Source: a phage. From it: a stretch of DNA of 64,000 nucleotides. Below are positions 2,109 to 12,105 of the stretch, piece by piece. Location: the NCBI GenBank assembly GCA_024875585.1, contig GCA_024875585.1_4107.1; one strand, 5' to 3'. Both the position numbers and the translations under genes were made by a program. How positions within the stretch are numbered: position 1 is the stretch's first letter; each line of letters begins with the position of its first letter. Below the pieces are notes generated by a model that searched no databases, was not told where the DNA came from, and saw only the letters and a list, made by a program, of their open reading frames with translations.

Positions 2109-2390
2109 ATGCGTTCATTTGAAAACTTAATAGGTAAACTTCTTTTATCTGAAATTAGTGAAGACGTTAAGGAATTATGCAAATCAAAAAGTTACATTCA
2201 TTTGGATGAACTGTTTGTTAAGTACGGAGAGATTAGTTTTAAATCATTATTTGTTTTTACTATGAAAGTACATAGTTTAAAGTACTTCGATTTAAGTTAT
2301 AAAAATGGTCAACCAAATCTATATCATATGTATTATCTCAAGAATATAGAAGAAGCTCATATCTTATTTTCTGAATATCTGAAGGTATAA
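2109..2390 (+). CDS. hypothetical protein (93 aa)
   Basis: ORF in + strand gene train, abuts next gene. Confidence 0.6.
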   Translation: MRSFENLIGKLLLSEISEDVKELCKSKSYIHLDELFVKYGEISFKSLFVFTMKVHSLKYFDLSYKNGQPNLYHMYYLKNIEEAHILFSEYLKV

Positions 2391-2391
2391 A

Positions 2392-2730
2392 ATGGAACAA
2401 TATTTTGAATTAGTTAATAAAGTGTCATTCTATGTAGTGTCATTGGTTTGGGTTTATTTCATGTTTTGCTACATTATTGCATTCTTCCGATATACTACTT
2501 TATATGAACGTATCTATTATGATGCACCAATATCATTCTTGGTGTTCTGTGCATGTACCTGGGGAATATTAGAAGTACTGATATGTGGATATAGTACTGA
2601 TGAATTAAATCTGGTATCGGTATTGACTGGGTTATCACTTGGTGTTATGATATCTTTCTTTCCAGTATGGTTGTTCTTTGAACTGATCCATCGCATTGAT
2701 GTATGGCGTTCTAATATCCCTGAAAAATAA
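2392..2730 (+). CDS. family D small multi-pass membrane protein
   Basis: hydrophobic helices; basic tail ...WRSNIPEK; tandem with two paralogs. Confidence 0.75.
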   Translation: MEQYFELVNKVSFYVVSLVWVYFMFCYIIAFFRYTTLYERIYYDAPISFLVFCACTWGILEVLICGYSTDELNLVSVLTGLSLGVMISFFPVWLFFELIHRIDVWRSNIPEK

Positions 2731-2739
2731 GGATTGATA

Positions 2740-3081
2740 ATGATTTATTACACTAACGTGTTTGCCTATGCTGTTGCTTGCATTTACATTGTTTACTTCT
2801 TATTTGGTGGAGTGCTTTGCTTCTTTAAGTACAAAACACTGTTTAATAGGATGTATCCAAATCATCCTATTGTAGTTGTACTTTTGATTCTTTCTCTTTC
2901 CCAAATAATCGTTGAAACTACATTGGGTATCAGTAGTGTACATTATAGTTTTGGCACTATAGTAATTATTACTATGCTTATTGCATACATTTTAGTACTT
3001 GGATATGGTATATTTGGTAATGTTGGAATGAAAATGTATCATCGAATTAAAACCTTACGTGATAATCTACCGGAGCGTTAA
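2740..3081 (+). CDS. family D small multi-pass membrane protein
   Basis: ATG 2740 after aagga (track start 2734 is TTG); tail ...LRDNLPER. Confidence 0.75.
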   Translation: MIYYTNVFAYAVACIYIVYFLFGGVLCFFKYKTLFNRMYPNHPIVVVLLILSLSQIIVETTLGISSVHYSFGTIVIITMLIAYILVLGYGIFGNVGMKMYHRIKTLRDNLPER

Positions 3082-3082
3082 G

Positions 3083-3427
3083 ATGTATAATTTAAACCTA
3101 ATCTCATATATTATAACAACCCTGTTTACATTTTATGTCTATGTTGGTATAATCCTACTGTACTTTAAATTTTATAAAGTGTTTAACCGTTTCTATCCTT
3201 CAATGGAGAATGAGTTCTTCTTTGTGTTGTACGTCTGCTACACGCTAATGGCTACTTGTTTCACTGTAGTTGATGGTATCATTGGTATTAAAGCAGATGG
3301 ACCAAATGGTAGTACGCTGGTTGCATTTATTCTTACCGGATTCTTGGCAACTTATATTACCTTCATTTCAACATGGTCAGTGGTTGAATTTCTCTTACGA
3401 CTACGAAAGAATATGCCGAATCGATAG
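3083..3427 (+). CDS. family D small multi-pass membrane protein
   Basis: ATG 3083 after ggag; tail ...LRKNMPNR; track start 3059 overlaps previous gene. Confidence 0.75.
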   Translation: MYNLNLISYIITTLFTFYVYVGIILLYFKFYKVFNRFYPSMENEFFFVLYVCYTLMATCFTVVDGIIGIKADGPNGSTLVAFILTGFLATYITFISTWSVVEFLLRLRKNMPNR

Positions 3428-3436
3428 GAGACATAT

Positions 3437-3694
3437 ATGTTTGCATTGCGTAACAAAAACACTAAAGAATTATTATGTATTGATACAGTATGGGATTGTG
3501 CGGGTTCAACTACTGTTCTTGAAGAAGGTACTGGATATTGCGTGTTTGTTGTTCATGATAGGAATGAACTCGAATCATTGCTTGCTGAGTTTAATGCTGG
3601 TGGTAATCCTAACAGTACTAAATTCCCTGTGATTGTTAATCCAGCACCACCTGGTTCTTATGAAATTCTAACACTATGTGAGATGGATAAGTAA
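3437..3694 (+). CDS. hypothetical protein (85 aa), paralog of 5579..5848
   Basis: SD aggag; MFALRNKNTKE.. / ..VVHDRNELESLL resembles MYALYNKEKKQ.. / ..YVHDDVSVLQRLL. Confidence 0.7.
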   Translation: MFALRNKNTKELLCIDTVWDCAGSTTVLEEGTGYCVFVVHDRNELESLLAEFNAGGNPNSTKFPVIVNPAPPGSYEILTLCEMDK

Positions 3695-4074
3695 TGCGTC
3701 AAATGTACAAAGTGACCGAGCTAAACAAGCGTCTAGTTAAACAATCAATGTTCGAGGATAAAGAGTCTTATTATAACTTTAAACGTGCTGTAGAGGCTGC
3801 TATCCACATTCAGAAGCTTAAAGAACGTGGTTGTATTATTTTGGAAAATGGATCGGAAGTTGTATCGGATGACTTTAGTGTAGCGTTTGATGTTTCACCT
3901 GATGGGACGCTATCAATGCCCCGCTTAGGAACTGGAAACATGACTGTTTGGGTTGGCTTCACTATGGGTAATGTACCAGGCACAGTGTATGTAGATGATA
4001 TGGAGTTGAAAGAAAGCTTCAAAAACTTATCTTATCTTGAACCACAATACGCACATGAAATGAATTTATTTTGA
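3694..4074 (+). CDS. hypothetical protein (126 aa)
   Basis: TAATG overlap with upstream gene. Confidence 0.7.
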   Translation: MRQMYKVTELNKRLVKQSMFEDKESYYNFKRAVEAAIHIQKLKERGCIILENGSEVVSDDFSVAFDVSPDGTLSMPRLGTGNMTVWVGFTMGNVPGTVYVDDMELKESFKNLSYLEPQYAHEMNLF

Positions 4075-4075
4075 G

Positions 4076-4132
4076 TTGACAAACACATTCAGTACTGTAT
4101 AATGCTTATCAAGGGGATGAACTTCTCATCCC
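4076..4132 (+). promoter_or_regulatory. sigma70-type promoter + leader hairpin
   Basis: TTGACA(4076-81)-16nt-TATAAT(4098-4103) with cagtacTG; hairpin GGGGATGA-acttc-TCATCCC 4113-4132. Confidence 0.6.
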
Positions 4133-4150
4133 TACAATCGAGGAACGACC

Positions 4151-4705
4151 ATGATTACTTTTAAGAAAACTGCTAACCACATCCATGAAATCTACATTAA
4201 CGGTCACAAAGCTGGCCTTCTTCGTTTACTCAGCCATCATCCTGATGTTATTGTATCTGATAATGAACCCAAAGATTGGCGTGTCTTTTTCTTTGGGAAG
4301 TACAGTGATTTTCAAGTATCAAATCTGAAGAACATTCGTTCAGTATGCACGTTAACTGAAATTAAAGAAAAGTTAGTAAAAGCATTGAAAACTAATCCAG
4401 ATGCAGTTCTTCCACCAGATAACTTTGTAGAGAAAGGTTATGCCTTAGCTCATTTCAAAGATGGCACTATTCAATCTATCAGCACTGCATATGAATATCA
4501 ATGGACTGAGTACTTCACTTATGGCTCCCGTGAAACTTTGATGGCTTCACGTAGTGAATTGGAAGAAGTAATAACTATTATAAATGAACGTGAACGTCAT
4601 TTATATGATAAACCTGAAATGTGGAGTTCAAATTACATTGACCGTATTGACTATGTTATTATGACTCCAATCTTTGACACTGCTTACTATGATTCTTTGA
4701 AATAA
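4151..4705 (+). CDS. hypothetical protein (184 aa)
   Basis: SD gaggaa; clean ORF. Confidence 0.8.
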   Translation: MITFKKTANHIHEIYINGHKAGLLRLLSHHPDVIVSDNEPKDWRVFFFGKYSDFQVSNLKNIRSVCTLTEIKEKLVKALKTNPDAVLPPDNFVEKGYALAHFKDGTIQSISTAYEYQWTEYFTYGSRETLMASRSELEEVITIINERERHLYDKPEMWSSNYIDRIDYVIMTPIFDTAYYDSLK

Positions 4706-4893: not shown

Positions 4894-4932
4894 TATTACG
4901 TGATATGTCACGTTAATTAAGTGAGACTATAA

Positions 4933-5193
4933 ATGAAAATTTTATTAGTTCTAATACTACTAATACTACTAATTGTTTTACCATTTACTTTAGTATCTCC
5001 TGAACTTGCATGGAATGTGTTTGTGTACTTAGTATGTACTATTGCGGTAAATGGTATCTTGTTCTTAGTTCTATTCATAAATGGAATAGGACACGGGGGT
5101 GGGTGGACCAGTACTGCTGATATTGTACATAAAACCACTATGTCTTTATTTGTAGTGTGGAATTTATTCTGGACTTGGTTTGTGTTCTTCTAA
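4933..5193 (+). CDS. small membrane protein (86 aa)
   Basis: very hydrophobic, 3 predicted TM runs; stop directly abuts next ATG. Confidence 0.65.
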   Translation: MKILLVLILLILLIVLPFTLVSPELAWNVFVYLVCTIAVNGILFLVLFINGIGHGGGWTSTADIVHKTTMSLFVVWNLFWTWFVFF

Positions 5194-5577
5194 ATGAAAA
5201 AAAATATGAATATAGATTTGAAAGGTGCAACCAGAACTGTTATCCTCATTGGTGAATACGCTATCAAGATTCCAACCTTCAAAAGCTGGAAGTTATTCTT
5301 AACGGGAATGATAGCTAACCTAAATGAACGTTCGTGGATGCAGTACTCCAATCGTAGTGACAGTAGTATCTGTCCTACGTTGTGGTCATCATGTACTGGA
5401 CTAATAACTGTACAGAAACGTTGTAAGCCAGTACAACATAGGGGTTTATTTTGGGTGGAGTTGTGTGCTTTAGCATTGAATTCTGAGTTAAGTATTGACT
5501 TCTTCTATTCAGATGCGAAGCCAGAAAACTTTGGGTATCTGGGTGGTAAGTTAGTTAAACTTGATTATGGAGATTAA
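5194..5577 (+). CDS. minimal kinase-fold protein ending right after the DFG-like motif
   Basis: GATRTVILIGEYAIKIP (G-loop + Lys), SDAKPENFGY (D-x-K-P-x-N catalytic loop), KLDYGD (DFG-like) then stop. Confidence 0.55.
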   Translation: MKKNMNIDLKGATRTVILIGEYAIKIPTFKSWKLFLTGMIANLNERSWMQYSNRSDSSICPTLWSSCTGLITVQKRCKPVQHRGLFWVELCALALNSELSIDFFYSDAKPENFGYLGGKLVKLDYGD

Positions 5578-5578
5578 T

Positions 5579-5848
5579 ATGTACGCATTGTATAATAAAG
5601 AAAAGAAACAATTTGCTAAGGTTGAAATTTCGATTGATACATTTGATATGTTGGAGTACTGTATTGTAACGGACCCATGTGCTAACTTGTATTACGTTCA
5701 TGATGACGTATCAGTACTGCAACGATTGCTTGAGAGTTCAAAAAGTCAATGTCAGGGAATCCATGATGGTTCATCCTATGAAACTCCTGAGTGTTCATAT
5801 GGCTGTCTGGATGGATATGAGATTGTTAAGTTAGGGATCGTTGAATAA
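5579..5848 (+). CDS. hypothetical protein (89 aa), paralog of 3437..3694
   Basis: ATG 5579 after ggag; track start 5561 overlaps upstream gene. Confidence 0.65.
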   Translation: MYALYNKEKKQFAKVEISIDTFDMLEYCIVTDPCANLYYVHDDVSVLQRLLESSKSQCQGIHDGSSYETPECSYGCLDGYEIVKLGIVE

Positions 5849-5850
5849 AG

Positions 5851-5887
5851 AAAAGGGTTGACTTTAGTCAGCCCTTTTTTCTATAAT
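5851..5887 (+). promoter_or_regulatory. bifunctional terminator hairpin / promoter
   Basis: aaaagggttgac-ttta-gtcagcccttttt; TTGACT(5858-63)-18nt-TATAAT(5882-87); near-identical copy at 10530. Confidence 0.6.
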
Positions 5888-5915
5888 CATTTCATCGGAA
5901 CGGAAGGATGTTGAA

Positions 5916-6398
5916 ATGAACTATTTAGATTTAATTAATACGTATGTCATCAGCCCATATCTTAACGATGAAAGTATCAAATGTGTAGTATCTGTTGATA
6001 ATCATCCAAATGGTGCATTAGAACTATTCGGTGCAGGACAGATTAACAATCGTTGTGGGTATACTTTTGAGTACTTACCAGAAAGAGATGTATTTGGTTG
6101 TTATGACCACAAAATCAAAAAAGGTGCTATATGGGGTAATCACAAAGATATTGCACAATCTTCACTTTTCGAAGATCATAATGGATATATGTGGCGTTCT
6201 CTTGGTGCAGTCCTACTTGATATCGCCCGTAGATATAAAAAGCGTATAACTCTTACTTATACACATACAGTTGAATATAAAAATGAAGTACAAGTAGAAG
6301 ATGAAGAATTTTTTAAAAGTATCCCGTACATTGAATTCAACTTCCAAAACGGGTATGCTATATATCCTGATGATTTTATTGGTGAAAAATATTTTTAA
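5916..6398 (+). CDS. hypothetical protein (160 aa)
   Basis: SD ggaagga; clean ORF. Confidence 0.8.
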   Translation: MNYLDLINTYVISPYLNDESIKCVVSVDNHPNGALELFGAGQINNRCGYTFEYLPERDVFGCYDHKIKKGAIWGNHKDIAQSSLFEDHNGYMWRSLGAVLLDIARRYKKRITLTYTHTVEYKNEVQVEDEEFFKSIPYIEFNFQNGYAIYPDDFIGEKYF

Positions 6399-6405
6399 AA
6401 AATAT

Positions 6406-6433
6406 TTGAAAAGAAAAGAATAAGTGCTATAAT
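6406..6433 (+). promoter_or_regulatory. sigma70-type promoter
   Basis: TTGAAA(6406-11)-16nt-TATAAT(6428-33), then ttacatcaagacaac leader as at other promoters. Confidence 0.5.
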
Positions 6434-6489
6434 TATTACATCAAGACAACAAACACTAACATGTAAACGCTACTAATTAGGAGACACAC

Positions 6490-6900
6490 ATGATTAACAA
6501 ACATTTCGCAGTTTCTAAAACAGTAACCATCGATAACGAATGGGAAATTACTATTCTTAATGATCCTGCTCGTGGGTTGCTTGCAGAGAATCTTGTACAG
6601 AAATACATCGACTGTAAGTCTGAATTGATTATTCACGACCGTACCAAATTTCTTCTCATCAATGGCAAGAAGTGTAAAGTATTAGTATTCACGGATAAAA
6701 TGAGCCGTGCAGACATTATCACCAAATTGGTAAGTTCTTCACGTCACCGCCCAGGAGTTAACAAATCTATCGAAGAAGTTAAAGATATGAAGCCTGGTGA
6801 TTTATTCATTATTGCGGGTTTTGATTCTAAAACAAGAGAAATGTACATTTCAGAAATGTACACTAATGCTGAAATGCGTAACAAATTCTTCTCTAACTAA
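6490..6900 (+). CDS. hypothetical protein (136 aa)
   Basis: SD taggag; clean ORF. Confidence 0.75.
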   Translation: MINKHFAVSKTVTIDNEWEITILNDPARGLLAENLVQKYIDCKSELIIHDRTKFLLINGKKCKVLVFTDKMSRADIITKLVSSSRHRPGVNKSIEEVKDMKPGDLFIIAGFDSKTREMYISEMYTNAEMRNKFFSN

Positions 6901-6931
6901 TCAACCTAATTATGTATTATACAAATCTATA

Positions 6932-8149
6932 ATGGATAAAAATATGATCTTCGAAACAGAAAAAACTTTACTTGAAACTTATACTTTAGAAAATCTTGTA
7001 CAACTTAATCTGGCCCGTCCTGATATTCAACGAAACTGGCAATGGAAAAGTAATAATCAAAATAATCTTATAATTTCTATTCTAAAGAATTCACCAATTG
7101 GACAATTTTTGGTATGGAATGAAACTTCTTCAAATACAATGTACATTACTGATGGACGCCATCGTTATACTGTAATTTCAAACTTCATTAATAATAAGTT
7201 CCCAGTAACAGTTAAAACCGAAAGTGGAACCAAAGATTATTATTATGGTTCTGACGATCCAATCGAAGAAGAAAACATTTCACTAAAACTTGGTGGTAAA
7301 AGTAAGACTTGGAATTTCTTATCAAAAGAAGAGCGTAATGCTTTTCGCAATAAAGAAGTATCAGTAACATTTGTTCATACAGATGATGCTGAGAAGATTT
7401 CTGAAATGTTTATGGCTATCAACACTGCTTCATCTAATTTGTGTAAAGTAGACTTGCTGGTATGCAAGCACCACAAAAATGCATACATGAAACGTATTGA
7501 TAAACTATTTTCAATTGAGATTGAAAAAGATGACCAAATGGCAGTTCTAGTTAGCGATTTCTATCGTGCAATCGGACACTGTAATGTCAACGGTAATTAC
7601 GAGAAACATTTAGCTAAACTTAAAGCTAACCCAAAAGTTCAGAAGCGTGAATTTTTTGAGATGTATTTTATGGTACGAGCCTTCACCAAATTGTGTCGTG
7701 ATGCTTTAAACGATACATTGAATTCATATCGTATGCCTAAGATGAATAAACAAATTGAAGATGCTATTATTAGTACTGAATCACTGAGTGAACAGCAAGC
7801 TAACGCCGATTTTGTTCAGTTCGTGAATGCAGTTCGTGAGATGAACCTTGTATCTCCAATAAAAGATTTACAAAAGTTTCAATTCATCCACGAAGATATG
7901 AAGAATACCTTTAACAAGCGTCTTTTTTGTATCTTAATGGGATTATATTATGCTTACGGTACACGTTTACCATTGCATTTTCGTGATGTTTGGTGTGCCA
8001 TTTATAATGAAATGTCAGAAAAAAGTACTGAACTACCAACAAACGGGACTGATAGTTCTTCTGCTATTGTAGCTGGTATCCAATTGATTGAACCGTACTT
8101 TAGTTCAGCCTTTAATAATATTTCATTGAGTGCTCGCGTGGGAAAGTGA
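6932..8149 (+). CDS. DUF262 (ParB/Srx-fold, GmrSD N-terminal-like) domain protein
   Basis: PDIQRNWQW, LIISILKNSPIGQFLVW, ITDGRHRYTVISNFI match the DUF262 FQR..W / PIG / DGQQR pattern; start at first ATG after stop of 6490..6900. Confidence 0.7.
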   Translation: MDKNMIFETEKTLLETYTLENLVQLNLARPDIQRNWQWKSNNQNNLIISILKNSPIGQFLVWNETSSNTMYITDGRHRYTVISNFINNKFPVTVKTESGTKDYYYGSDDPIEEENISLKLGGKSKTWNFLSKEERNAFRNKEVSVTFVHTDDAEKISEMFMAINTASSNLCKVDLLVCKHHKNAYMKRIDKLFSIEIEKDDQMAVLVSDFYRAIGHCNVNGNYEKHLAKLKANPKVQKREFFEMYFMVRAFTKLCRDALNDTLNSYRMPKMNKQIEDAIISTESLSEQQANADFVQFVNAVREMNLVSPIKDLQKFQFIHEDMKNTFNKRLFCILMGLYYAYGTRLPLHFRDVWCAIYNEMSEKSTELPTNGTDSSSAIVAGIQLIEPYFSSAFNNISLSARVGK

Positions 8150-8358
8150 AAAATCGTGGAATACTAAATATTTCACAAAAACAATATATTTTGAAAAAAT
8201 ATCCCGTTTGTTATCTTTGTAAACAATTTATATTAGATACAGATAAACCACACTTTGATCATGTACAGTCATTGAAAAATGGTGGTAGTAATGACCTAGA
8301 AAATATTAGACCAACGCACCCCATTTGTAATTTACGCAAAGGTGCTAAAAGTATGTAG
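8146..8358 (+). CDS. HNH endonuclease (70 aa)
   Basis: CYLCKQ...HFDHVQSLKNGGSNDLENIRPTHPICNLRKG; GTGA start/stop overlap with DUF262 gene. Confidence 0.75.
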   Translation: MKNRGILNISQKQYILKKYPVCYLCKQFILDTDKPHFDHVQSLKNGGSNDLENIRPTHPICNLRKGAKSM

Positions 8359-8407
8359 AATAAAGACTCCCATTGACTGGGAGTCTTGTTATATTAAAAG
8401 GATTTAT

Positions 8408-9244
8408 ATGAGTATTAAAAATAAATTAGATCAGTATTATACAAAACCAGAGTATGCTGTAGATTGTTATACTAAATCATTAGAATTAATTTCTGAACGT
8501 ATGGATATTAGTTCATCGTATTTTATGGAACCATGTGTCGGTACTGGTTCATTTTATCTACAATTTCCTGAAGAACGTCGTTTTGGTTGTGATATCGAAC
8601 CAGTACATCTTGATGAAAATGTTATACATTCTGATTTTTTGCTTGAGTTCGGGATTAATGCAAGAAGTAAAGGTGAGCCAATAATTGTTATAAGTAATCC
8701 ACCATTTGGTAAGATTTCTTCTTTGGCTATCAAATTCTTTAATAAATGTGCATCTATGCCTGAAGTGAAATATATTTGTTTTATTGTACCTAAGACATTC
8801 CGTAAAGTTGCAACACAGAATAAACTAAACGAGATGTTCCATCTTGTTCTTGATGAAGATTCACCACATGATGCTTTTATTCTGCATGGCGAACCGCATC
8901 ATGTACCATGTGTATTTCAGATATGGGAGCGTAGAGATGAAGTTCGTGAACAACACGAAATTAAAAATAAATCAAACTACTTCCAGTTTTGTACTAAGGA
9001 TGAAGCGGATATTTACATTAAGCGTGTAGGAACTAAAGCTGGTGAGTATGCTGCACCTGGTAAAGAACACAAAGATGCAAGTATGTACTACATTAAAACT
9101 GATTATGTTGATGAAATTATTAGAATTTTGCAAAGTGAAGACTACATTGACGAGATTAAACGTATACGCAAAACCACCGCTGGTGTATTCTGTGTATCTA
9201 AATCTGAACTTGTACTGAACATTGAAAAACGTTTGAATTTTTAA
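8408..9244 (+). CDS. N6-adenine DNA methyltransferase (gamma-type motif order)
   Basis: YYTKPE (motif X-like), EPCVGTGSF (motif I), VISNPPFG (motif IV NPPF); ATG 8408 after aaagga. Confidence 0.75.
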   Translation: MSIKNKLDQYYTKPEYAVDCYTKSLELISERMDISSSYFMEPCVGTGSFYLQFPEERRFGCDIEPVHLDENVIHSDFLLEFGINARSKGEPIIVISNPPFGKISSLAIKFFNKCASMPEVKYICFIVPKTFRKVATQNKLNEMFHLVLDEDSPHDAFILHGEPHHVPCVFQIWERRDEVREQHEIKNKSNYFQFCTKDEADIYIKRVGTKAGEYAAPGKEHKDASMYYIKTDYVDEIIRILQSEDYIDEIKRIRKTTAGVFCVSKSELVLNIEKRLNF

Positions 9245-9250
9245 AATACA

Positions 9251-9283
9251 GGGTTGACTTAGGTCAGCCCTTTTTGCTAAAAT
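9251..9283 (+). promoter_or_regulatory. bifunctional terminator hairpin / promoter
   Basis: gggttgac-ttag-gtcagccc+ttttt; TTGACT(9254-59)-18nt-TAAAAT. Confidence 0.55.
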
Positions 9284-9311
9284 TCTTTCATCGAAACGTG
9301 AGGATGAATAC

Positions 9312-9827
9312 ATGACACGCATTAACTTAGTACACGTTAAAGAACTTGCAGACCAACATCTGATGGCTGAATATCGTGAACTACCACGTGTATTTGGTGC
9401 TGTACAAAAACACGTTCAAGCATGTAAGCGTGTACGTGATTTCAAAATTAACAGTACTTATCTGTTAGGTTCAGGTCATGTGACATTCTTTTACGACAAG
9501 TTGCTGTACTTACAGAAGCGTCATATCGATATTGTCAACGAATGTTTGCGTCGTGGTATGAAGATTCAAAATACTGAAGTAAACGACATTAGCAGCTTCC
9601 CTGCTGAGTTTTGTAATGACTATGTACCATCGGAGTCAGAGATTGAAATGTCTCGTAAGCGTTTGATTGAGAAGCTTCAGATGAAGCCTACGTGGTATAA
9701 GTTTACTGATGTTGAATGTCCACAGTACGTTACAGATATGCTGAACGTAAGTAGTAAGTTCGAATATAGTACGGCTATGTTAGACGAAATTGAAGAACAA
9801 ATCAAAGATGAAATGAATAATTATTAA
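9312..9827 (+). CDS. denV: endonuclease V, pyrimidine-dimer DNA glycosylase/AP lyase
   Basis: [50 protein letters not shown] is near-colinear with T4 DenV as I recall it; about 35 extra acidic C-terminal residues. Confidence 0.92.
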
Positions 9828-9865
9828 AGGAAAGGATTGACTTCGGTCACATAAAGGAACATAAC

Positions 9866-10060
9866 ATGTTATTAGTATATTCAAAGCGTTTCTGGATTTC
9901 TTTTATTGTACTATCGCTAATCGGCTTCGGTGTGAGTATACTCTTTTCGTGGGATGAATTGGGCACATGGTATTATGAAGTCCCGTGGTACATGAAGATA
10001 GCTCCTTGTTACGCGGCATTGTTCGTATCATTCCTTATTGTTGTCTTCAGCGAGGATTAG
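9866..10060 (+). CDS. small membrane protein (64 aa)
   Basis: two hydrophobic runs; SD aaagga. Confidence 0.6.
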   Translation: MLLVYSKRFWISFIVLSLIGFGVSILFSWDELGTWYYEVPWYMKIAPCYAALFVSFLIVVFSED

Positions 10061-10529: not shown

Positions 10530-10567
10530 AAAAAGGGTTGACTTTAGTCAGCCCTTTTTGCTATAAT
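10530..10567 (+). promoter_or_regulatory. bifunctional terminator hairpin / promoter
   Basis: aaaagggttgac-ttta-gtcagccctttt; TTGACT(10538-43)-18nt-TATAAT(10562-67). Confidence 0.6.
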
Positions 10568-11425: not shown

Positions 11426-11767
11426 ATGTGTGAGTTTTTTGAATCTAATATAATGCTTGGTATTACATTGATATACATGTATGTATTCTTGTTTTATCAT
11501 TCAATTGTAATTAGTCTTTGGTATTTTAAAAGGAAAATGGTTTTTAAATTATATTCATATGATAATGTATTCTTAGTTATATATAGTATCATACAAGGTG
11601 GGTTTGTTCTATTTGGTATTATGACGTATGTGATTTATAGATTACAAATTGATAACACACCATACATTACACAATATGTTGTGTTTTCAGGACTAATCGT
11701 ATGGTTATTGGTGTGTATAATTTATTTTATAATTAAAGCTCGTGATAAAATTAAAGGGGATTTCTAA
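11426..11767 (+). CDS. family D small multi-pass membrane protein
   Basis: MCEFFESNIMLGITLIYM..; tail ARDKIKGDF; first of 8 tandem paralogs. Confidence 0.8.
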   Translation: MCEFFESNIMLGITLIYMYVFLFYHSIVISLWYFKRKMVFKLYSYDNVFLVIYSIIQGGFVLFGIMTYVIYRLQIDNTPYITQYVVFSGLIVWLLVCIIYFIIKARDKIKGDF

Positions 11768-12105
11768 TGTTAGAATTTTTTAAATCAGATGTGATGCTTA
11801 GTATTACATTGATTTATATGTTTGGTTTTTTATTTTATCATCTACTAGTTGTAGTTCTATGGTATTTTAAAAAGAAAATAGTTTTCAAACTGTATCCACC
11901 TAGTAACATTTTATTGTTTCTTTACACACTTATTCAAGGTATGTTTGTTATTATTGGTGTTATCACACACTTAATCTATTGTTATAATCCACATTTAAAA
12001 TCAATAACACAATATATTGTTTTCTTTGGGTTGTTCATTTGGTTAATTATATACTTAATTGAACTCATTATTCATAGTAGAGAAAAAATTCGTGGAGACT
12101 TCTAA
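11767..12105 (+). CDS. family D small multi-pass membrane protein
   Basis: MLEFFKSDVMLSITLIYM..; tail SREKIRGDF; TAATG junction. Confidence 0.8.
   Translation: MLEFFKSDVMLSITLIYMFGFLFYHLLVVVLWYFKKKIVFKLYPPSNILLFLYTLIQGMFVIIGVITHLIYCYNPHLKSITQYIVFFGLFIWLIIYLIELIIHSREKIRGDF

Follow-up and report, generated by a model that had tools for sequence, protein, structure and literature searches.

The stretch of DNA analysed here, hereafter the window, comprises 64,000 nucleotides (nt) of contig GCA_024875585.1_4107.1 and belongs to an Asteriusvirus (121Q/PBECO4-like) jumbo coliphage with a genome of about 350 kb, whose denV gene and flanks are about 94% identical to those of many such phages. Ahead of denV lies a small module in which a gene for a 136-amino-acid (aa) protein is followed by an open reading frame (ORF) for a DUF262 protein, by a reading frame for an HNH nuclease domain, by a hairpin and by a DNA methyltransferase (MTase) gene. 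An original prediction, made from the letters of the sequence, had placed DUF262, HNH, hairpin, MTase and denV correctly and had passed over the 136-aa gene at 6490-6900, a more constant member of the module than the MTase. The same prediction described DUF262 and HNH as a split pair, that is, a DUF262 protein translationally coupled at a GTGA overlap to a stand-alone HNH nuclease. The comparative analysis presented here leads to a different picture, in which the two frames would constitute one gene, joined by a conserved programmed -1 ribosomal frameshift. Judging from the sequences, we give this reading a probability of roughly 80%.

The DUF262 ORF matches the corresponding Pfam profile with 65.3 bits (cutoff 33.2) and carries the motifs IQRNWQW (QR..W), SPIGQF and TDGRHRY (DGxxR). 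Accordingly, the PIG, DGxxR and QR..W parts of the signature that had been read in this protein are all there, the supposed FQR being IQR in the sequence. In an alignment of 17 sequences Q33, R34, W38, D74, R78 and N164 are invariant; in the (I/V)DGQQR motif the QQ positions are variable, and the GAP32 lineage has A in place of G. In the 405-aa product, residues ~1-190 form the DUF262 NTPase domain, of ParB fold, and residues ~190-400 an alpha-helical and putatively DNA-binding middle domain; among PADLOC models, NsnA matches the product best (E=2e-12, residues 29-338). A phmmer search of the protein against PDB sequences gave nothing useful, similarity to solved members being undetectable, and a scan of viral contigs with the DUF262 alignment returned GAP32 alone.

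The frame that follows is characterized by the motif series CxxC...DH...GGSN...N...H..CN, typical of a His-Me finger of the CxxC...CN zinc-ribbon type. Profile searches thus recover both domains, DUF262 as PF03235 and the nuclease as PF01844, with no match of the nuclease domain to PF07510 (DUF1524) at E<=0.1. The residues for catalysis and zinc binding (C427, C430, D443, H444, N458, H463, C466 and N467 in the numbering of the fusion) are invariant in the 17 sequences, and the ratio of nonsynonymous to synonymous substitution rates (dN/dS) is 0.14-0.30 where synonymous sites are unsaturated. By these sequence measures the HNH frame is under purifying selection and functional. One gene caller predicts a 70-aa HNH protein from it (P0007). 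Following the DUF262 gene, gene calls and GenBank annotation leave an 'empty' gap of 220-340 bp in ph0011, GAP32, L006, L009, L013, L014, L015 and L016. In particular, the HNH-encoding -1 frame is unannotated in the GenBank records of ph0011 (L001, 6739-6951) and GAP32 (L004, 3771-4004).

Homologues of the junction were gathered from close relatives and by an exhaustive search, made without a profile, in which the hypothetical fusion was compared with 1.84 billion representatives; contig look-ups followed. Nine lineages were obtained, namely the window, ph0011, GAP32, L006/7/8, L009/10, L012/13, L014, L015 and L016, with DUF262 identities to the window of 88, 74, 74, ~33, ~30 and ~22-24%. In all nine the sense codons of the DUF262 ORF finish, or nearly finish, on the zero-frame heptamer G_GGA_AAG, whose neighbouring codons differ between lineages, and in all nine the HNH domain (67-78 codons) lies in the -1 frame, which is open from the heptamer onwards. 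The zero-frame stop follows the heptamer at once in seven lineages, after one codon in L006 and after six in L009. Specifically, in the Cronobacter phage GAP32 a DUF262 protein 22% identical to that of the window is followed by an unannotated gap and then by a 69.5%-identical MTase; the gap contains the HNH frame, devoid of a start codon at the junction, and the DUF262 ORF ends in the same nine nucleotides, GTGGGAAAG, as in the window. These nine nucleotides are the longest invariant run in the nucleotide alignment of the junction.

Conservation of the encoded residues accounts for little of this pattern. G404 and K405 are invariant in a protein alignment whose mean column identity is 51%, and the chance of encountering xxG-GGA-AAG given x-Gly-Lys is ~0.01 per lineage at the codon usage of the window. 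No other in-frame copy of the heptamer is found among the ~9,000 codon positions of the window's long ORFs. The 7-mer GGGAAAG is by itself not over-represented in the window (6 observed, 4 expected), and its count being unremarkable, the frameshift signal rests on frame, position and conservation. The heptamer is the one used by phage lambda at its G/GT (tail chaperone) site. G_GGA_AAG is rated as highly shift-prone in E. coli (PMC5009743).

The distribution of start codons argues in the same direction, and it is here that the proposal of two separate proteins has to be weighed. In that model a 70-aa HNH protein arises by termination-reinitiation at GTGA and acts as a non-covalent partner of DUF262, as in the two-subunit GmrS/GmrD, of which the existence is established (PMC4619093). 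The GTG-TGA overlap of the window and ph0011 and the gene call of P0007 are in keeping with it, and independent initiation at the junction GTG may indeed occur in these two phages. In seven of the nine lineages, however, the junction offers no start codon, GTA, GCC and other triplets being found there. The first ATG, GTG or TTG appears at codon 10-16 of the HNH frame in five lineages, and in the window-like group these starts sit inside a stretch of conserved protein sequence, KRGxLNxLQKxY. The sole start of the HNH frame in L015 is codon 62, past the catalytic motif, and in L016 there is no ATG, GTG or TTG anywhere in the frame. Moreover, protein-level conservation in L006, L009 and GAP32 sets in at the heptamer, ahead of every potential start, and the two-protein model offers no reason for an invariant GGGAAAG. 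We regard the model as very improbable, and with it the stand-alone HNH of the original prediction is abandoned. In other words, the missing junction starts and the invariant zero-frame heptamer together indicate that HNH is effectively fused to DUF262 by -1 frameshifting.

That the break between the frames reflects an assembly error or the decay of a pseudogene, with DUF262 alone being made, as the lack of an HNH gene in the public ph0011 and GAP32 annotations might suggest, is scarcely credible and was rejected, since nine independent assemblies agree in the heptamer and in the -1 offset at it and differ in where the stop lies, and the residues and dN/dS values given above are those of an intact nuclease. 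The concern that the genes might be inactive in relatives is likewise allayed: they are intact, and ph0011, with a nucleotide identity of 84%, has them in the same arrangement. Transcriptional slippage was also considered and rejected, as the longest A/T run at the site is A5 and none is conserved.

Elements that could stimulate the shift are less uniform. A candidate hairpin lies just downstream of the heptamer in the window, its stem being kept in ph0011 by two compensatory pairs, and strong hairpins of differing sequence are found 4-7 nt downstream of the heptamer in L015 and L016. In addition, the stop codon directly after the heptamer in seven of the nine lineages may contribute to shifting. 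Several observations weigh against the frameshift reading, besides the possible initiation at GTG in two phages. Single-sequence folds give no hairpin downstream of the heptamer in GAP32 and L013; no stimulatory structure is common to all lineages, the folds being heterogeneous; and the consensus fold of four close sequences amounts to -0.99 kcal/mol, a negligible value. No Rfam family matches within 5500-9900.

Table 1. Features of the module and its surroundings in the window
Feature	Position	Strand	Remarks
Left boundary element	5855..5887	+	hairpin GGGTTGACTTnnGTCAGCCC with -35-like TTGACT, then T-run and TATAAT; promoter scan 11/12 at 5858-5887
160-aa ORF, function unassigned	5916..6398	+	within the 3.3-kb insertion; found otherwise only in ph0011
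Sigma-70-like promoter, candidate for the operon	6406..6433	+	TTGAAA-16-TATAAT with TG; 11/12, consensus match only
Conserved small protein	6490..6900	+	136 aa; precedes the DUF262 gene directly
DUF262/GmrSD_N zero-frame ORF	6932-8149	+	405 aa; PF03235 E=1.1e-17, residues 27-179
Slippery heptamer G_GGA_AAG, proposed -1 programmed ribosomal frameshift site	8140..8146	+	zero frame; TGA directly after (8147-8149)
-1-frame extension, linker and HNH domain	8146-8358	+	70 codons; PF01844 E=2.3e-10; GTG within AAGTGA
Candidate frameshift-stimulating hairpin	8156..8176	+	8-bp stem, CTAAA loop; 9 nt past the heptamer
Hairpin between HNH stop and MTase start	8363-8387	+	10-bp stem, 5-nt loop; terminator-like, weak T tail
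Type-II-like NPPF MTase	8408-9244	+	278 aa, ATG at 8408; PADLOC MTase_II E=1.3e-34
Right boundary element, second copy of the hairpin/promoter cassette	9250..9283	+	terminator-like 9250-9271, promoter-like 9254-9283
denV	9312-9827	+	171 codons; Pyr_excise PF03013 E=9e-15; phrog_1183 E=1e-58

Read through from the heptamer, the window would encode a 475-aa DUF262-HNH fusion, whose deduced junction reads ...SAR-VGK and continues with VKNRGILNISQK. Over their whole length, the linker after the shift site included, the deduced fusions of the various lineages (455-499 aa) can be aligned with DUF262-HNH proteins of 442-471 aa that are encoded in a single ORF, and phrog_29172 (531 positions) matches both ORFs of the window in the right order. 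The AlphaFold model of the 475-aa fusion reaches a predicted local distance difference test (pLDDT) of 82.7 and a predicted template modelling score (pTM) of 0.70. Its sole internal disordered segment, residues 398-408, falls exactly at the junction, where it forms an interdomain linker. The closest structural matches of the model are BrxU and SspE, followed by HNH nucleases.

The single-ORF DUF262-HNH(PF01844) proteins (P0011, P0018, P0019, P0047, P0081; phrog_29172) share the three-part architecture and have a similar length (442-467 aa). They differ from the proteins described here in their continuous frame, with no GK or G_GGA_AAG at the equivalent position, and in their sequence, the identity being ~20%. 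Two of their loci were examined, and neither an MTase nor a small upstream gene adjoins them. One fused relative, L018, has a phage-like context and stands beside a SegE-like GIY-YIG gene. We know of no single-ORF DUF262-HNH protein that has been functionally characterized.

In general, the architecture is that of GmrSD, BrxU, SspE and DndI, in which an N-terminal DUF262 ParB fold (with QR..W, DGxxR and RLN-type motifs) is followed by a helical middle and by a C-terminal His-Me-finger nuclease; SspE and DndI also share with the present module the genetic linkage to a DNA-modification module. Differences are nevertheless evident. The nuclease of the GmrSD family is DUF1524 (PF07510), whereas the compact domain found here is an HNH (PF01844) whose zinc motif is CxxC; enzymes of the GmrSD type are mostly encoded in a continuous ORF, whereas here joining by ribosomal frameshift is proposed; GmrSD, BrxU and SspE belong to bacterial defence islands, whereas the present gene is found in a virulent jumbo phage; and the modification linked to SspE and DndI is phosphorothioation, the partner here being an adenine methyltransferase. 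On the basis of its domains, the predicted fusion would work in the manner of a GmrSD enzyme, yet it stands outside the family by the Pfam definition (PF01844, not DUF1524). The statement of the original prediction that the nuclease of GmrSD-type enzymes is fused to DUF262 holds for most of them; the prototype GmrS/GmrD consists of two proteins (PMC4619093, PMC4437046). For the same reason, the split arrangement that was thought uncharacterized in combination with an MTase is no novelty as far as the split is concerned (GmrS/GmrD, PMC4619093), while the linkage to the MTase stands.

The short product finds its own counterparts in DUF262 proteins lacking a nuclease domain, such as Menshen NsnA, DndB and PD-T4-2, as it would consist of the DUF262 and helical domains only. 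In Menshen this pair of domains is the DNA sensor, and methylases adjoin some Menshen loci (PMC12065111). Menshen, however, has NsnB (an ABC ATPase) and NsnC, neither of which is present here, where an effector would come from the frameshift extension instead. As for the decoding, the likeness is to IS3/IS911 OrfA/OrfAB, dnaX tau/gamma and lambda G/GT, all of which have a zero-frame X_XXY_YYZ heptamer, a stop at or just past the site and a shared N-terminus, with a domain gained by the longer product. What distinguishes the present case from these is the restriction-type nuclease/NTPase and the fact that no conserved stimulator was found. The literature searched contains no report of DUF262, GmrSD or HNH nucleases with programmed frameshifting, which is no proof of absence; in particular, 'HNH' does not occur, and no such case appears, in the roughly 70% of the 2016 recoding review (PMC5009743) that was covered. 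Consequently, decoding by frameshift is new for such an enzyme as far as we found, the type of enzyme and the recoding signal being each of a known kind.

The MTase that follows the hairpin matches PADLOC MTase_II models (E=1.3e-34 to 1e-22), phrog_5172 (E=3e-88) and phrog_799, one PHROG being named DNA methyltransferase; it has no Pfam match above threshold, and a phmmer search against PDB sequences returned nothing useful. Its motifs, in the order DQYYTKP, EPCVGTGSF and SNPPFGK, fit a gamma-class layout when read from the sequence, and the enzyme is probably of the N6-adenine type. The gamma-type NPPF adenine methyltransferase and the 10-bp-stem hairpin of the original prediction are thus borne out, as is denV as the next gene. 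Comparable stem-loops stand at the position of this hairpin in ph0011, L006 and L009.

At the other end of the module, a small gene of 136-155 codons lies immediately upstream of DUF262 in every lineage for which that flank can be seen, and in most of them it is a recognizable homologue. Its product is far less conserved than the MTase, identities being ~17-21% as compared with 69.5% for the MTase between the window and GAP32. Modelling predicts a restriction-endonuclease-like fold for the 136-aa protein. An active PD-(D/E)xK nuclease was considered and is not called, as D...(D/E)xK is not conserved in the alignment.

The module resides in a mobile accessory region. With respect to 121Q, positions 5911-9241 of the window are a 3.3-kb insertion, with homology stopping at ~5910 and restarting at 9242. 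Out of 39 matching Asteriusvirus-type phage records, just one, ph0011, has the DUF262-HNH-MTase stretch, at 84% nucleotide identity. The cassette is therefore sporadic among close relatives and occupies an exact insertion point between conserved genes, the pattern by which free-standing homing endonuclease genes are recognized. Including the more distant lineages, the gene belongs to a mobile accessory module of Rak2/121Q/GAP32-like jumbo phages. The insertion also contains a 160-aa ORF, which is 82% identical at the aa level to its counterpart in ph0011 (L001, 4504-4983) and has no match in Pfam, PHROG or PADLOC.

Both ends of the insertion fall within copies of a repeated intergenic element of ~70 bp, made of the hairpin GGGTTGACTTnnGTCAGCCC with a -35 box inside the stem, followed by a T-run and TATAAT. 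The copies, located in the window at 5855-5887, 9250-9283 and 10530-10565 and in 121Q ahead of denV (L002, ~5993-6057), align with one another and flank the 3.3-kb insertion and the next gene block. Promoter/stem-loop cassettes of a similar kind have been proposed as drivers of the shuffling of gene modules in T4-type phages. From its sequence, the right-hand copy is a candidate for both the terminator of the MTase and the promoter of denV. Taken together, a single transcription unit is plausible, leading from the promoter-like sequence at 6406-6433 through the 136-aa gene, DUF262 with its -1 extension and the hairpin to the MTase.

The surroundings of denV are a hot spot of free-standing HNH/homing endonuclease genes, different in each phage: they are found in L001 at 4034-4447, in L003 (JP4) at 5600-6013 and 8240-9358, in L002 (121Q) at 7626-9089 and in L004 (GAP32) at 1221-2000 and 4921-5835. 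A 137-aa HNH gene stands just ahead of the insertion slot in ph0011 and JP4 and is missing from the window. The same gene block is also polymorphic in a small segment of ~300 bp (window 4898-5205), present in the window and 121Q and missing from JP4; it spans most of an 86-aa ORF (4933-5193), and a 127-aa ORF (5194-5577) begins at its downstream edge. Elsewhere in the window, tandem paralogous ORFs of ~112 aa (11426-11767 and 11767-12105) have hydrophobic N-terminal halves (MCEFFESNIMLGITLIYMYVFLFYH... and MLEFFKSDVMLSITLIYMFGFLFYH...), and they are preceded at 2109-4074 by another run of ORFs, of 93-126 aa; similar small-ORF arrays are annotated as membrane proteins with three transmembrane segments in GAP32. 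Finally, in L017 (5003-13609), a contig of the L014 lineage, the DUF262 module gives way to a long array of about ten ORFs of similar size (212-346 aa) with no Pfam matches, and a DUF723-repeat protein (417 aa) is encoded upstream.

A mechanism can be proposed from these features. Most ribosomes would terminate at the TGA (8147-8149) and release the 405-aa sensor/NTPase form, and a minority would slip by -1 on G_GGA_AAG (8140-8146) and produce the 475-aa DUF262-helical-HNH form, whose domain order would be that of the NTP-regulated nucleases of the GmrSD/BrxU/SspE type. The frameshift would in this way fix the ratio of nuclease-less to nuclease-bearing subunits, in parallel with OrfA/OrfAB of IS3/IS911 and tau/gamma of dnaX. 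Since characterized relatives, namely BrxU and SspE, act as dimers (PMC12065111), mixed assemblies of short and long forms might be expected, with fewer nuclease domains and with cleavage limited or shaped, for example towards nicking rather than double-strand cutting. That is, the short form would temper or target the nuclease. The long form would cut or nick DNA lacking the methyl mark of the cassette, be it of the host or of a co-infecting phage, while the phage genome would be shielded by the MTase, and the system would favour the spread of the cassette in mixed infections.

The MTase adjoins the DUF262 module in seven of the eight lineages that can be assessed, downstream in the window, ph0011, L006, L009, GAP32 and L013 and upstream in L015, where it is 25% identical. 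Among three overlapping readings of the biological role, a methylation-gated attack on unmethylated DNA of the host or of competitors is the one we tentatively favour, as a possibility that falls short of an even chance, because the linkage persists even after rearrangement. A number of observations weigh against it. The characterized DUF262 nucleases GmrSD and BrxU cut modified DNA (PMC4437046, PMC8565348). In L014/L017 no MTase is found in the available 10 kb downstream and 2.3 kb upstream, although the small gene and the frameshifted DUF262-HNH are kept, and none is adjacent in the two single-ORF relatives examined. The same MTase family stands alone in ~230 other phage records, as in rV5/phAPEC8-like phages, where a lone MTase lies between primase/helicase and DNA polymerase. 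In addition, between the window and GAP32 the MTase is 69.5% identical and DUF262 only 22%, which is not what tight co-specificity would predict. Given the absence of the MTase from L014/L017 and its orphan occurrence elsewhere, the core of the module is the small protein with the frameshifted DUF262-HNH, and the MTase is a frequent, non-obligatory partner.

A second reading is that of a modification-dependent nuclease, similar to type IV enzymes and directed, for instance, against the hydroxymethylcytosine (hmC) or glucosylated hmC of T-even DNA, with the MTase as an unrelated orphan anti-restriction enzyme sharing the island. BrxU and SspE as the closest solved structures, the preference of GmrSD and BrxU for modified DNA, the lone MTases and the loci devoid of one would all agree with this explanation. 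Against it stand the nuclease itself, a PF01844 HNH and not DUF1524, and the adjacency of the MTase in seven of eight lineages. In particular, its retention in the rearranged L015 argues for selection on the linkage, and we consider such a type IV-like enzyme rather unlikely.

Of the same low likelihood is a selfish, homing-like element, which would cut relatives lacking the cassette in mixed infections and be copied during repair, with the MTase and/or the small protein conferring self-immunity and with no benefit to the phage needed. The cassette occurs in one of 39 records, in all of which the flanking denV is ~94% identical, as a precise 3.3-kb insertion between repeated hairpin/promoter elements; the slot and its neighbours hold other HNH/homing endonucleases in ph0011, JP4, 121Q and GAP32, and the fused relative L018 has its SegE-like neighbour. 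Purely parasitic homing genes, however, tend to decay, and those of the present module, in spite of their divergence (22-30% identity), are intact and under purifying selection in several jumbo-phage lineages. Moreover, homing overlaps with the methylation-gated attack and does not exclude it.

Lytic viruses that combine a DNA-modifying enzyme with a nuclease, so that their own DNA can be distinguished, are represented by the chlorella viruses with their restriction-modification systems and by T4 with hmC and EndoII/EndoIV, which are used against host DNA. The likeness would be one of mode and not of membership, the protein families being unrelated. It is doubtful, if conceivable, that conserved recoding, mixed short and long subunits, a small protein of restriction-endonuclease fold and an MTase together make up a new phage-borne, methylation-gated offensive restriction system.

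The findings concern a set of phage DUF262 proteins that are annotated as having no effector domain and are followed by 'empty' gaps of 220-340 bp. In tailed phages, -1 programmed frameshifting is chiefly known from the tail-assembly chaperones. A frameshift in a restriction-type nuclease, conserved down to ~22% identity, would add a functional class to the known frameshift genes and offer a clean model for study. Furthermore, the making of subunits with and without the nuclease in a fixed ratio suggests a mode of regulation for dimers like those of GmrSD, BrxU and SspE. Finally, the presence of a module of nuclease and MTase in a virulent jumbo phage bears on the degradation of host DNA, on the exclusion of competitors and on the spread of the cassette itself.

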